From a virus (taxonomy: Duplodnaviria > Caudoviricetes), in the IMG/VR virus record IMGVR_UViG_3300042291_001013: 64,000 nt of DNA. One strand, written 5' to 3'. Positions within the stretch are counted from its first letter, which is position 1, and each line of letters starts with the position of its first letter. Shown one piece after another: positions 7,515-13,498 of this stretch. A program made the translations under genes and the position numbers. Under the pieces are notes generated by a model. It did not search any database. It was not told the DNA's origin and saw nothing but the letters and a program-made list of their open reading frames with translations.

Positions 7515-7606
7515 TGGCGGAAGACGGAGGAGTCGAACCCCATCCCTGTTAAGAGAACCTGGTTTTCAAGGCCAGTCGCGGGACCAACCCCACTGCATCA
7601 TCTTCC
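7515..7606 (-). tRNA. tRNA-Ser(TGA), atypical D-arm
   Basis: Loop CT-TGA-AA, long variable arm, G73, CCA. Confidence 0.88.
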
Positions 7607-8704: not shown

Positions 8705-8779
8705 TGGTAGCCATGGACAATTTCGAAATGTCGACCTAACGCTTATCAAGCGTTTGCTCTTCCTCTGAGCTACACGGCT
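8705..8779 (-). tRNA. tRNA-Ile(GAT)
   Basis: Loop TT-GAT-AA, CCA. Confidence 0.94.
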
Positions 8780-8788
8780 AAATATTGA

Positions 8789-8962
8789 ATGCACATTGAC
8801 GTCTATCTACAAAAACAGTTGTACTGCACCATTGAACTAAGTCAGCCCGGTTACAATGTGCCTGCTATCTTGGATCAAATCCAAAGTGATCGCGAAGCTG
8901 GCAACTTGACCTGGGTACAGTGGGATCAGCCGCTTGACTTTGAAGTCAAATACTTTGAATAA
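8789..8962 (+). CDS. Small protein antisense to the tRNA array (57 aa, MHIDVYLQKQLYCTIEL...FEVKYFE)
   Basis: TAAATA at 8779-8784 then ATG 8789; ORF exactly fills the Ile-Gln spacer. Confidence 0.6.
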   Translation: MHIDVYLQKQLYCTIELSQPGYNVPAILDQIQSDREAGNLTWVQWDQPLDFEVKYFE

Positions 8963-8964
8963 CT

Positions 8965-9038
8965 TGGCACGGGAACTAGGGCTCGAACCTAGAATGACAG
9001 AGTCAAAGTCTGTAGTGTTACCATTACACTATTCCCGA
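8965..9038 (-). tRNA. tRNA-Gln(TTG)
   Basis: Loop CT-TTG-AC, unpaired U1/U72, G73, CCA. Confidence 0.93.
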
Positions 9039-9046
9039 ACAAAACT

Positions 9047-9121
9047 TGGTGGATGTAAGTAGATTCGAACTACTGACCTGCCGCGTATGAAGCGAATGCA
9101 CTACCGCTGTGCTATACATCC
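9047..9121 (-). tRNA. tRNA-Met(CAT), probably elongator
   Basis: Loop TT-CAT-AC, G1-C72 paired, CCA. Confidence 0.85.
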
Positions 9122-9124
9122 GAT

Positions 9125-9199
9125 TGGGGTATCCAATGAGAATTGAACTCATGATAGCGGAATCACAATCCGCGGTTTTACCACTAAACTATGGACACC
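9125..9199 (-). tRNA. tRNA-His(GTG)
   Basis: Loop TT-GTG-AT, G-1:C73, CCA. Confidence 0.96.
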
Positions 9200-9314
9200 A
9201 TATAGGAGCACTCTCAACAGCAGGCCTAGGAGGCAATCTGGTTGCTGAAACTTTTGCATCTGCAGATACTAGGCTTCTTCTCCCGCGTTGACTTACGCCA
9301 AGAATGCTTTTATA
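9200..9314 (-). ncRNA. Candidate stem-closed ncRNA A (Lys-His spacer)
   Basis: TATAAAAGCATTCT...AGAGTGCTCCTATA terminal stem fills the spacer from Lys CCA to His G-1. Confidence 0.5.
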
Positions 9315-9388
9315 TGGTAGGGGTGTTCGGGAACGATCCGAATTTTACTGGTTAAAAGCCAGTTACTTCACCTTAAAGTTTCACCCCC
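9315..9388 (-). tRNA. tRNA-Lys(TTT), atypical T-loop
   Basis: Loop CT-TTT-AA; T-loop ATCGTTC; CCA. Confidence 0.88.
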
Positions 9389-9417
9389 ATAGGTTTATCA
9401 CTCTTGTCACTAGTCAT
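9373..9417 (-). other. Mini-ORF MTSDKSDKPMGVKL running into the 5' end of tRNA-Lys
   Basis: AAGGAG at 9430-9425, 7 nt before ATG 9417; TAA inside the tRNA. Confidence 0.35.
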
Positions 9418-9439
9418 GACAGATCTCCTTTTAAAAAAT

Positions 9440-9516
9440 TGGTACCACCTGAGAGATTCAAACTCCCGACCCCTAAGTTCGTAGCCTAGTGCTCTGTTCA
9501 GCTGAGCTAAGGTGGT
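9440..9516 (-). tRNA. tRNA-Arg(ACG)
   Basis: Loop CT-ACG-AA, CCA. Confidence 0.94.
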
Positions 9517-9520
9517 GTGT

Positions 9521-9596
9521 TGGTGCCCCTTGTCCGACTCGAACAGACCACCTACTGCTTACAAAACAGTTGCTCTACCGGATGAGCTAAAGGGGC
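9521..9596 (-). tRNA. tRNA-Thr(TGT)
   Basis: Loop TT-TGT-AA, CCA. Confidence 0.95.
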
Positions 9597-9603
9597 AAAT
9601 TGT

Positions 9604-9693
9604 TGGCGGTGCGAAAGAGACTCGAACTCTTAAAGCGGCTTTCACCACTCGACGGATTAGCAATCCGCTCCAATACCATTATGGGACCGCACC
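9604..9693 (-). tRNA. tRNA-Ser(GCT)
   Basis: Loop TT-GCT-AA, long variable arm, G73, CCA. Confidence 0.95.
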
Positions 9694-9700
9694 TCAAATT

Positions 9701-9776
9701 TGGCTCCCCAGCGTGGGATCGAACCACGGACACCTTGATTAACAGTCAAGTGCAACTACCGCTGTGCTACTAGGGA
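9701..9776 (-). tRNA. tRNA-Asn(GTT)
   Basis: Loop CT-GTT-AA, G73, CCA. Confidence 0.96.
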
Positions 9777-9817
9777 ATAATCTACTTAGTAGGCACTCAT
9801 GCCTACTATCAAAAACT

Positions 9818-9894
9818 TGGCGACCCGGGAAGGATTTGAACCTCCGACATTTGGTTTTGGAGACCAACGTTCTGCCAGACTGAACTACCGAGCC
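9818..9894 (-). tRNA. tRNA-Trp(CCA)
   Basis: Loop CT-CCA-AA, G73, CCA. Confidence 0.95.
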
Positions 9895-9899
9895 ATATT

Positions 9900-9974
9900 T
9901 GGTGGAGGATAAGAGAATTGAACTCTTTTGACCTACGTGCAAGGCAGGCATAATACCCAGTATATGAATCCCCC
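9900..9974 (-). tRNA. tRNA-Ala(TGC)
   Basis: Loop CT-TGC-AC, G3:U70, CCA. Confidence 0.95.
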
Positions 9975-10002
9975 AAATTTTCAAACACACTGTTTCCAAT
10001 GT

Positions 10003-10062
10003 GTGTATTAAAGCACTCTAAAATACTTAGGCTGCCTGTTCGTAAAGAATGCTTTAATACGC
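10003..10062 (-). ncRNA. Candidate stem-closed ncRNA B (17-bp hairpin)
   Basis: GCGTATTAAAGCATTCT...AGAGTGCTTTAATACAC; stem core identical to element A. Confidence 0.45.
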
Positions 10063-10156
10063 TGTAATTTTTTATCTCACAAAAGAGACTCTATCCTACA
10101 GGCCGCCCATTTGTAGTTTAGAGTGATACCGGCTCTCGTTGCCATTGCACTAAATG

Positions 10157-10188
10157 AAAAACCCTGGAGTGTTTAGTTCCAGGGTCTT
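10157..10188 (-). terminator. Intrinsic terminator of attenuator 1
   Basis: AAG-ACCCTGGA-actaaacac-TCCAGGGT-TTTT. Confidence 0.85.
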
Positions 10189-10208
10189 GTTGAATTTGTC
10201 AGTTACTT

Positions 10209-10343
10209 TTATGCGTAACCTGCACCTTCAATAGACCCCGACATCCCTAGAATACTATTCACGCGACCAGAGGCGTGTGACCAGGTAAATGTTGCCTGGA
10301 GCATCGCGGGTTTTGTCGACAGTGAACGGAATGTTGTTTTCAT
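10209..10343 (-). CDS. Putative leader peptide 1 (44 aa, MKTTFRSLSTKPAMLQATFTWSHASGRVNSILGMSGSIEGAGYA)
   Basis: Starts 10 nt after a -10 box; carries CGGGGTCTATTGAA complementary to the terminator 5' arm; stop 20 nt before the terminator. Confidence 0.65.
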   Translation of the reverse strand: MKTTFRSLSTKPAMLQATFTWSHASGRVNSILGMSGSIEGAGYA

Positions 10344-10353
10344 CTTAAGTCCT

Positions 10354-10382
10354 ATTGTAGTTTATTTATGATTGTTTGTCAA
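10354..10382 (-). promoter_or_regulatory. sigma70 promoter of leader 1 (TAAATA within spacer)
   Basis: TTGACA-17-TACAAT; TAAATA at 10363-10368. Confidence 0.8.
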
Positions 10383-12022: not shown

Positions 12023-12049
12023 AAAAACCCTGCTCGGTGCAGGGTCTTT
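12023..12049 (-). terminator. Intrinsic terminator of attenuator 2
   Basis: AAAG-ACCCTGC-accga-GCAGGGT-TTTTCTTT. Confidence 0.85.
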
Positions 12050-12069
12050 GTAGATGTAGTACGAAATAC

Positions 12070-12156
12070 TTACACACAAAGACCCCGAGATGGATCATAC
12101 TCACGCTCGCATGTGAATGCCATTGAATTGAGGATGATTGCGAAAGTTTGTTTCAT
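12070..12156 (-). CDS. Putative leader peptide 2 (28 aa, MKQTFAIILNSMAFTCEREYDPSRGLCV), leaderless
   Basis: ATG 6 nt after TATAAT; CGGGGTCTTTGT can form 12 bp with the terminator 5' arm; stop 21 nt before the terminator. Confidence 0.68.
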   Translation of the reverse strand: MKQTFAIILNSMAFTCEREYDPSRGLCV

Positions 12157-12162
12157 AAGTGT

Positions 12163-12191
12163 ATTATATATGACAGCAGACAAAAAGTCTA
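12163..12191 (-). promoter_or_regulatory. sigma70 promoter of leader 2
   Basis: TAGACT-17-TATAAT-6 nt-ATG. Confidence 0.75.
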
Positions 12192-12204
12192 CTGTTTTGG
12201 TAAA

Positions 12205-12540
12205 ATTGGATAGGTTTATTCTGTTACGAGGAAAACCTATCAAAACCCTAGGCAGTGTTTAGGCTGCCAATGCGAACTGTTCGTCGTTTGCGTTTACGTT
12301 TTTTGCTTCTACGACCGGGAAACCCCAACCCTACGGCTTTCACATTGCCGAGCTGTCCACTCTGTTACTCTTTGCCCTGTCGAAACCATGGCAGGCCCAT
12401 TATAAAACATACTCAAACGGGTCTTTTCGCCTATCCCCGTGCCGTGGCTTGCAAGGATAGGGCTGAATATGCTTTATGGTGGACCTGGCGGGAGTCGAAC
12501 CCGCGTCCAGAACACTTTTCTCTTTGCTTCATACAGCAAT
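12205..12540 (-). ncRNA. ssrA: Circularly permuted (two-piece) tmRNA, tag ANDEQFALAA
   Basis: Acceptor piece ...GGACGCGGGTTCGACTCCCGCCAGGTCCACCA (CCA 12479-12477) precedes a 78-nt intervening segment and the coding piece GGGCCTG... (G1=12398, G3:U70); tag ORF 12291-12259. Confidence 0.93.
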
Positions 12541-12553
12541 AACCTATATTATA

Positions 12554-13498
12554 TTAGGCTTTCTGAATTTTGTCAACCAAACCGGCACTGAATGTGTTGG
12601 CAAATTGATCATATACTTTGGCAGTTACCTTGCGAAAAGTTTGCTCATCAGCATCGCTAAATTTAATAACACGAATGCCATCTTGCTCACAACGTGCCTT
12701 GGTAGGCTCAACTTCGGCCACAGCCACAGCACGCTCAAAACGTCCAGCTTCTAATGCCGCATCTTTCATGACCTGTTGCAGGTCTGCAGACAAGCCAGCC
12801 AAGAAGTTCTTGTTCACAATGATGTTAGTCAACAACAAGCGATGGTTGGGTTCCAAGATAGATTCAGCAACTTCGTTTTGTTGGCAAGCATAGATACGTG
12901 GCCATGAGCTTTCGCCGCCATCAATAGCACCATCTCGGATGCCTTCGGCCACACGTTCAACGTCCATCACAACTGGATCAGCGCCCAGGGCAGTCCATGT
13001 AGCGGCTGCAACTGGTGAATTTGACACACGCACTTTAACGCCGGCCATTTCACTTAGACTTGCAACGTCACGATTCATGGGCATGTTCATAAAGCCACCT
13101 GAGTAGGTAAATGCCATGCCTTTGATGTTGCTGTTCTTGGCGTAACCATCCAGCAAACTCTCGCCAATTTCACTTTCAAACACACGTGCCGCGTGATCGT
13201 GATCACGGAACAAGAAAGGCAAATCAAGTGCGTCAAGATCATTGTTGTACTTGCTGAGTACATAAGTGTACATCTGGCTCATTTCAATAGCGCCAGTGTC
13301 CATAACATCCAACAGGTTATGTTTGGTGATTGGTTCACCATGATTGTACTTGCTGGTATACTCGCTTAGAGTCAGCACTTCAATCTCAAACTGTCCTGGT
13401 GCACGGGCTTCTACTACTTCAGTAAATTTTTCAGCGGCACGAATAAAAATGTCAATAGGTTCATGGGCTAATACCCATTTGATGTGGATAGGTTTCAT
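12554..13498 (-). CDS. TRAP-transporter DctP-like solute-binding protein (no signal peptide)
   Basis: ALDLPFLFRD, EMAGVKVRV, LGADPVVM, GAIDGGE motifs. Confidence 0.88.
   Translation of the reverse strand: MKPIHIKWVLAHEPIDIFIRAAEKFTEVVEARAPGQFEIEVLTLSEYTSKYNHGEPITKHNLLDVMDTGAIEMSQMYTYVLSKYNNDLDALDLPFLFRDHDHAARVFESEIGESLLDGYAKNSNIKGMAFTYSGGFMNMPMNRDVASLSEMAGVKVRVSNSPVAAATWTALGADPVVMDVERVAEGIRDGAIDGGESSWPRIYACQQNEVAESILEPNHRLLLTNIIVNKNFLAGLSADLQQVMKDAALEAGRFERAVAVAEVEPTKARCEQDGIRVIKFSDADEQTFRKVTAKVYDQFANTFSAGLVDKIQKA

Follow-up and report, generated by a model that had tools for sequence, protein, structure and literature searches.

In enterobacteria, the trpL, hisL, thrL and ilv leaders control biosynthetic enzymes by transcription attenuation. 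A short leader open reading frame (ORF) stands ahead of an intrinsic terminator, an antiterminator that excludes this terminator has its 5′ strand in or near the ORF, and the position of the ribosome decides between the two. In the Escherichia coli pheST attenuator, the pheM leader senses one amino acid and controls a synthetase. Stall-sensing leader peptides are also found upstream of antibiotic resistance genes, as in bmrCD. T-box riboswitches respond to tRNA status as well, by binding uncharged tRNA directly, and need no ORF. Phage tRNA genes are usually discussed as codon-usage aids or as spares against host anticodon nucleases, and to our knowledge the control of their expression is largely unknown. 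Here, we analyse a putative attenuator that precedes such genes. It occupies positions 10157–10382 (minus strand) of a 64,000-nt stretch of viral DNA (Duplodnaviria; Caudoviricetes) from the IMG/VR record IMGVR_UViG_3300042291_001013; this whole stretch is called the window below.

Three other leaders are relevant to the comparison. On the leader ORF of vmlR in Bacillus subtilis, slowing of the ribosome favours the antiterminator and read-through (PMC9226507). The attenuator transcript of trpL/rnTrpL in Sinorhizobium meliloti has the first codon of the leader ORF at its 5′ end (PMC6614838), and so has the leader transcript of ilvBNC in Corynebacterium glutamicum (PMC11857589). A full-text literature search, with subscription journals outside its scope, revealed no published description of leader-peptide attenuation of phage tRNA genes.

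The phage element has four structural features of the attenuator class: an intrinsic terminator, a mutually exclusive antiterminator, an ORF that overlaps the latter, and maintenance of this ORF among relatives. From the sequence of the element and its homologues, we put the probability that it is a ribosome-dependent transcription attenuator gating a phage tRNA block at about 0.7. It resembles the enterobacterial leaders in its architecture and differs from them in several ways. It precedes tRNA genes and not biosynthetic enzymes, its leader mixes many amino acids without a run of any single codon, its mRNA is predicted to be leaderless, and a structured RNA (domain B) lies between the switch and the genes. 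Neither a conserved anti-antiterminator nor a clear pause hairpin of the trp type was found, a feature that is typical of trp without being defining for the wider class, and for lack of a conserved 1:2 helix the absence of translation would lead to read-through and not to superattenuation. As in pheST, a leader peptide would sense the supply of charged tRNA and control a gene of the translation apparatus; unlike pheM, it would respond to many codons, and its targets would be the tRNA genes themselves. The leaderless ORF predicted here has counterparts in S. meliloti trpL and C. glutamicum ilvBNC; these, however, serve amino-acid operons of cells, and their regulatory codons stand for one or three amino acids. 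As in vmlR and bmrCD, a stalled ribosome would cause read-through, so that translation stress is sensed rather than one metabolite. Those leaders respond to drug-bound ribosomes and control resistance proteins, whereas the phage element precedes tRNAs and has a composition that tracks the tRNA set. Finally, like T-box riboswitches, the element would attenuate transcription in response to tRNA status. However, it has a conserved ORF, and neither a stem I specifier, a T-box sequence nor an Rfam match to this family was found.

A conserved leader ORF and two exclusive helices

The record to which the window belongs is 100 kb long and has an estimated completeness of only 29%, which points to a jumbo phage. 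The window contains 29 tRNA genes and a permuted transfer-messenger RNA (tmRNA) of betaproteobacterial type. Nothing similar to the region was found among GenBank phages, for which megablast and blastn returned tRNA matches alone. The 44-residue product of the leader ORF has metagenome homologues at 80–93% identity. The contigs encoding them, several of which measure 286–364 kb, keep the order tRNA-Met, ORF, spacer, then tRNA-Ala or tRNA-Trp, and the entire 420-nt spacer is conserved in the alignment, the portion past the terminator included. A scan of viral contigs with a motif taken from the part downstream of the terminator gave 41 loci. Profile searches revealed two adjoining modules, domain A (promoter through terminator) and domain B (the structured spacer), in about 55 loci, of which 33–37 are distinct and all are from freshwater jumbo-phage contigs. 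All loci of the family have the promoter, ORF, switch, domain B and tRNA array in this order. Individual homologous loci or lineages carry labels (L010, L028, L152, L157, L159, L162, L164, L172, L176, L177, L180 and L181). The number of distinct homologues depends on the analysis: 39 for the promoter and ATG search, 37 for the frame test, and 33 for covariation and folding, the last being the domain-A sequences of alignment A1.

The motif GGGTC...GACCC...GGGTTTT occurs twice in the window (about 0 expected). The neighbouring 205-aa protein led to one distant locus, from which the element is absent. Among bacterial genome contigs, the domain-B motif had 120 matches, mostly due to chance in GC-rich genomes; the sole true one is in a 2-kb contig binned with a metagenome-assembled genome of Flavobacteriales and assigns no host. 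Freshwater metatranscriptome contigs of relatives span domain A and part of domain B, which shows their presence only, and not ends, strand or expression level.

The first-pass annotation, made by a model from the bare sequence, had described a promoter, a 44-codon ORF, a 20-nt spacer and an intrinsic terminator. It had also noted that a segment inside the ORF (region 2) is complementary to the 5′ arm of the terminator (region 3), giving an antiterminator. We retrieved every one of these features (table 1). Region 3 can thus pair with either region 2 or region 4, its partner in the terminator. The 2:3 pairing in the window (CGGGGTCTATTGAA with TTCAACAAGACCCTG) consists of 8 bp, a 1 × 2 internal loop and 5 bp. 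The terminator is missed by a simple scan because this allows loops of at most 8 nt and the hairpin has a loop of 9 nt.

We then have two helices that cannot coexist, and both covary. The terminator helix is 99.7% paired and has double changes at three pairs (18 cells in the 33 sequences). For instance, compensatory swaps turn CCCUGG/CCAGGG into CCCAGG/CCUGGG, CCCCGGG/CCCGGGG or CCCUAGG/CCUAGGG, and a U-tract of at least 4 follows in all homologues. The antiterminator helix (A1 columns 137–144 with 199–206) is 95.1% paired, with double changes in four of its eight pairs. None of 500 shuffles reached its score, and sliding the partner by one column lowers the pairing to 52–59%. Variants of region 3 are matched in both partners, e.g. 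CCCUA with UAGGG in the L162 group. Covariation of these two helices was one check that the first-pass annotation had proposed, and conservation of the ORF and of the antiterminator pairing, the lack of which it had held to be fatal, is also observed. The helices exclude each other and both covary; selection thus acts on each of two competing structures, as is characteristic of regulatory switches. The leader RNA as a whole is more structured than shuffles (z = −3.7). RNAalifold, when applied to the whole of domain A, returned the terminator and a weak 4-bp helix only. We also observed that the terminator loop, ACUAAA(C/A)AC (10169–10177, minus strand; A1 columns 209–217), is nearly invariant. 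Terminator loops normally drift, and a protein or an RNA may bind to this one.

The promoter is also conserved. It agrees with the consensus at 11 of 12 positions in the window, and a TTGAC-anchored search found TTGACN-17-TACAAT/TATAAT, with a spacer of variable sequence, in 38 of the 39 distinct homologues. The one that was missed, L176, has a variant −35 box (GGTCAA). The ATG follows the −10 box by 6–10 nt in 38 of the 39 (7 nt in most), hence the mRNA is predicted to be leaderless or nearly so, which the initial account of this copy did not include. Homologues usually start with ATGATG. The first ATG is AAG in the window, so that the transcript probably has there a 5′ extension of 2–3 nt. 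One locus outside the 39, L180, has a 5′ untranslated region of 20 nt with a Shine-Dalgarno sequence (AGGA) 7 nt before the ATG. Between 10354 and 8697 there is no other strong promoter-like site on the same strand. There is only a weak one (9 of 12 positions) before 8697, in agreement with the first-pass annotation, which had listed eleven tRNAs downstream and had seen no other promoter until 8697.

The leader ORF is maintained. All 37 homologues keep frame 0 open from the ATG to region 2, and only 0 and 3 of them do so for the other two frames. Frame 0 remains open despite in-frame deletions of 3 and 9 nt, and L172 and L162 have a compensated pair of frameshifts (−2/−1) four codons apart. 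The pairwise differences at the three codon positions are 0.35/0.39/0.44. In the neighbouring radical-SAM gene of two of the same lineages they are 0.14/0.09/0.30, and the leader there has 4, 3 and 5 changes in 35 codons. The constraint on amino acids thus appears weak, even if a core, W-S-H-A-x-G-R-x-N-S-I-P-G, is recurrent in the leaders. Neither the peptide of this leader nor that of the second copy of the element (see below) matched a Pfam family. The open frame, the weak amino-acid constraint and the lack of a Pfam family together suggest selection on the open frame and on the RNA sequence, and not on a protein, which is what one would expect of a regulatory leader. The ORF also contains a hairpin, CCAGG-loop-CCUGG, predicted by the minimum-free-energy fold. 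Its 3′ arm includes an invariant Trp codon (10283–10281), and, on inspection of the alignment, relatives have other arm sequences with the pairing preserved. The hairpin may be a pause or folding element.

Table 1. Features of the element and its surroundings in the window.
Feature	Position	Strand	Description	Basis
Promoter, sigma-70 type	10354..10382	-	TTGACA (10382-10377), 17 nt, TACAAT (10359-10354)	11/12 consensus positions
Leader ORF	10209..10343	-	44 codons; ATG 10 nt past the -10 box	ORF detection
Hairpin inside ORF	10281..10299	-	CCAGG-loop-CCUGG	minimum-free-energy fold
Region 2	10227..10240	-	antiterminator 5′ strand, CGGGGTCTATTGAA	inside ORF, codons 35-39
Region 3	10180..10194	-	strand shared by antiterminator and terminator, TTCAACAAGACCCTG	pairs with region 2 or region 4
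Intrinsic terminator	10157..10188	-	10-bp stem AAGACCCUGGA / UCCAGGGUUU, conserved 9-nt loop ACUAAACAC, U-tract	pairing, covariation
Domain B	9975..10151	-	five-helix structured RNA linking terminator to first tRNA	covariation
Putatively gated tRNA block	8705..9974	-	Ala, Trp, Asn, Ser(GCU), Thr(UGU), Arg(ACG), Lys, His, Met, Gln, Ile	ARAGORN, Rfam
Second copy of the element (Attenuator 2)	12023..12191	-	TAGACT-17-TATAAT, 6 nt, ATG, 28-codon leader, 12-bp 2:3 helix, terminator	sequence reading

Ribosome geometry and the proposed mechanism

We used constrained folding to assess which structure the RNA would adopt on its own. Before the 3′ arm of the terminator is made, 32 of 33 homologues include the 2:3 helix in the minimum-free-energy fold of the nascent RNA, and the mean contribution of this helix is 13.4 kcal/mol. 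Once the RNA is complete, 26 of 33 favour the antiterminator (mean difference, 2.7 kcal/mol); in the window, the two conformers are within 1.5 kcal/mol of each other. If the naked nascent RNA folds into the antiterminator, region 2 must be occupied for termination to take place, and a ribosome would be needed. The first-pass annotation had included an anti-antiterminator (ACCC-G-CGAT with GTCG-GGGT). It is present in the window and is not conserved: it is 69.5% paired across homologues, no better than shuffles, and the same holds for the 1:2 helix that the minimum-free-energy fold contains (65.7%), two values to be read in the light of the alignment quality in the 5′ part. Without a conserved 1:2 helix, and with a naked RNA that forms the antiterminator, the default in the absence of translation would be read-through, unlike in trp. 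Hence, the core of the attenuator first described withstands the comparison with relatives, thanks to covariation, ORF maintenance and stop placement, whereas its 1:2 helix does not, and its ribosome-free state would be the opposite of that of trp.

The position of the ORF relative to the switch is also conserved. Region 2 is inside the ORF in all homologues, and in every one of them the stop codon lies 6–27 nt past the start of region 2 and 25–34 nt ahead of the core of region 3. When the ribosome is modelled as a crude 30-nt footprint, its placement at the stop codon gives the terminator in 21 of 33 homologues, including all forms with a short tail, and with the ribosome on the invariant Trp codon 27 of 33 retain the antiterminator.

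These data are consistent with the following mechanism. The promoter would start a transcript at the leader AUG or within about 3 nt of it. Once region 3 emerges, region 2 would pair with it, and this antiterminator would block the 3:4 hairpin, so that transcription proceeds through domain B into the tRNA genes. A ribosome that translates the leader without delay would unwind and cover region 2 and sit at the stop codon, 6–27 nt further on. Region 3 would then pair with region 4, and transcription would end at the U-tract. With the ribosome absent, or stalled early at a codon whose charged tRNA is scarce, region 2 would remain free and the phage tRNAs would be made. Within this scheme, we infer where transcription starts, that the leader is translated, how efficient termination is, which way the response goes and what its signal is. 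As for the signal, the leader's amino acids correspond for the most part to the downstream tRNAs, and the element therefore probably reports a shortage of those tRNAs, for example after cleavage or depletion of host tRNAs.

Leader codons, tRNA sets and other explanations

The first-pass annotation had noted that the leader uses 18 of the 20 amino acids and had concluded that any stall would open the array. The composition is correct (Cys and Asp are missing). We think that it is better read as a mirror of the downstream tRNA set, for which the evidence is suggestive. Before region 2, the leader has no Cys, Asp, Glu or Tyr (P = 0.003 for a 33-codon window of the phage's ORFs), and the tRNAs for these four amino acids lie upstream of the element, behind its second copy. 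The leaderless ORF of the second copy encodes MKQTFAIILNSMAFTCEREYDPSRGLCV, with the C-terminal end CEREYDPSRGLCV and with CEREYD within, and stands upstream of Glu, Tyr, Asp, Asp, Cys and Met tRNAs. A cluster of the CEREYD type would arise by chance with a probability of 0.018. Relatives of the second copy have unrelated peptides: YLEED precedes Leu, Leu, Glu, Tyr, Asp and Met tRNAs in L181, and SYNYEHMC precedes Ser, Glu, Tyr, Asp and Met tRNAs in L157. In each of the three second-copy leaders, the own block ranks first or second of 20.

The first-copy leaders of the family show a corresponding pattern. They have Cys or Tyr when tRNA-Cys or tRNA-Tyr is downstream and lack them when it is upstream, with Tyr in leaders of the L152 group as the only discordant case. 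Two close lineages have leaders that differ at five residues, two of these being changes from Arg to Cys and from Ser to Tyr. Among ten lineage representatives, amino acids with upstream-only tRNAs are depleted in nine (P from 0.0009 to 0.02) and not in the tenth (P = 0.59). Enrichment for the own block is seen in 19 of 20 elements. It is important to highlight that leaders and arrays are inherited together, which leaves few independent contrasts. We thus regard it as possible, with odds somewhat short of even, that the leader is matched in codons to the block downstream and senses specific codons. We hold with similar reserve the broader scheme in which each phage tRNA block is headed by its own leaderless leader mirroring its codons, so that a stall at a codon served by one block would switch on that block alone. 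For the second copy, there are promoter-like sites past its terminator (12012–11984 and 11910–11882), which makes the gating of the Glu-to-Met tRNA block less clear.

A number of observations weigh against ribosome-dependent attenuation of the tRNA block by this element. No conserved anti-antiterminator was found among the homologues. In long-tail forms, to which the window belongs, a ribosome modelled at the stop codon has a footprint that narrowly misses region 2, and the effect of the ribosome would have to come from sterics and timing. Twelve of the 33 modelled RNAs keep the antiterminator, and the RNA of the window folds into the terminator with or without a ribosome. The 10-nt gap between the −10 box and the ATG in the window, with its probable 5′ extension of 2–3 nt, weakens the case for leaderless initiation. 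A function of the terminated transcript, about 190 nt long, as an RNA could also account for nucleotide conservation at all three codon positions, and transcripts from promoters further upstream may also feed the array. On the side of the codons, the match between leaders and tRNAs rests on few independent lineages, the leaders of L162 and L180 fit their own blocks poorly, and in the window taken by itself, cognate codons are not significantly enriched over the whole leader (P = 0.14 and 0.29).

As a rival explanation, the cassette could be a self-contained small gene with its own promoter and terminator, encoding a microprotein or a dual-function small RNA. The tRNAs would then come from constitutive leakage or from other promoters, and the 2:3 helix would only tune the leakiness. 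A conserved cassette of promoter, ORF and terminator fits such a gene, as do the recurrent peptide core and the nucleotide constraint at all codon positions, and in S. meliloti leader peptides, like attenuator RNAs that end at the terminator, can act in trans. Yet amino-acid constraint is weak and no protein family is matched, the stop of the ORF tracks region 2 in every lineage, and domain B always connects the cassette to a tRNA array without a strong promoter of its own. Moreover, the naked RNA would mostly not terminate, which is odd for the end of a plain gene. We consider this explanation quite unlikely. Least probable of all, in our opinion, is a real switch operated by something other than a ribosome, i.e. 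an RNA-binding protein of the phage or the host, a small molecule, or uncharged tRNA in the manner of a T-box, with an ORF that is incidental or secondary. It would account for the near invariance of the terminator loop, CUAAA(A/C)AC, and of several unpaired stretches, which could be a binding site, and for the elaborate conserved domain B next to the switch. However, it leaves unexplained why the ORF stays open in all 37 homologues, through compensated frameshifts, why an ATG stands at the start of the transcript and why region 2 is always within the ORF. In addition, there is no match to the T-box or to any other Rfam family.

One further possibility concerns what the ribosome reports and is a variant of attenuation rather than an alternative to it. 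The element could be a general sensor of translation capacity without codon specificity. Slowed initiation or elongation would open the array, and the resemblance between leaders and tRNAs would be an inherited bias. Read-through as the ribosome-free default is in line with this, and so are the 18 amino acids of the leader and its non-significant whole-leader enrichment in the window. Most A1 leaders lack acidic residues, a trait that could be ancestral. The second-copy leaders do not fit as well: they are rich in the residues that A1 leaders lack, and their own blocks have the high ranks given above. Nor does the presence of Cys and Tyr in those A1 leaders where the cognate tRNA genes are downstream. 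We therefore find a purely general sensor somewhat unlikely.

If the element is a ribosome-dependent attenuator of tRNA genes, it would close a feedback loop: the decoding machinery would signal that it runs short, and the virus would respond with tRNAs. Transfer RNA genes would join amino-acid operons as targets of leader-peptide attenuation, and the element would provide a compact natural sensor of codon-specific translation stress. If supply is indeed driven by demand, the phage would sense and repair the depletion or cleavage of host tRNAs, codon set by codon set. The family has natural variants, with two copies per genome, different leaders and different tRNA sets, and because of this the idea can be directly tested with reporter fusions.

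Domain B, tRNA arrays and neighbouring RNAs

Domain B (177 nt) appears to be a new class of structured RNA, with strong covariation. Its 36 pairs are 97.8% paired, and double changes occur in 18 of them against 11.0 in shuffles. In most loci it ends about 4 nt or less from the first tRNA of a tight array; a few have larger gaps or small overlaps. The identity of this first tRNA varies (Ala, Trp, Asn, Gln, Ile or Tyr). Since domain B always joins the switch to the first tRNA, it is probably part of the regulated transcript. Under demand-driven supply, it could be a further RNA module for passage into the tRNA array, e.g. for processing or processive antitermination.

Comparison of domains A and B with Rfam 15 gave no match at E ≤ 1 for the window or at E ≤ 0.5 for five diverged loci. 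The domain-A region of L180 had one match at chance level (22.8 bits for a gathering score of 88). We had also considered tmRNA, RNase P RNA, 6S RNA, SRP RNA, ROOL and GOLLD as identities of the 420-nt spacer, and dropped them given the absence of the corresponding motifs and Rfam matches.

The region around domain B accepts additional sequences in some relatives. Small ORFs led by a Shine-Dalgarno sequence occur between the terminator and domain B at L028:2031-2101, L159:1049-1122, L157:6353-6551 and L162:9263-9461. Their products are MTEEEYWKWIQENVQ (L028), MTTEEYWQWIHNNVQ (L159), a peptide of 61 aa (L157) and one of 51 aa (L162), and they would also be under the control of the switch. The long third helix of domain B carries hypervariable inserts. 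In L177 (7590-7660), the insert of this helix is a roughly 90-nt cargo that contains a T-arm-like hairpin, GGGGTTCGAATCCCC. The same cargo is found at L010:3455-3545, after tRNA-Trp, where it is bracketed by AAAATACAC and GTGTATTTT. It resembles a small RNA insert of a mobile or modular kind.

Elsewhere in the tRNA arrays, the tRNA-Sec model has a weak match at 7519-7606 (minus strand), between tRNA-Pro and tRNA-Val, which scores 36.9 bits, below the gathering score of 47, and is not called by ARAGORN. Borderline or sub-threshold matches to this model are also present in L162 (47.5 bits) and L164 (44.8 bits). The second copy of the element is just downstream of the tmRNA gene and overlaps its 3′ end by about 20 nt. 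This tmRNA (12171-12590, minus strand) is of the permuted, two-piece kind, with 123 bits for Rfam tmRNA_permuted and 112 bits for beta_tmRNA, and its type hints at a betaproteobacterial host.

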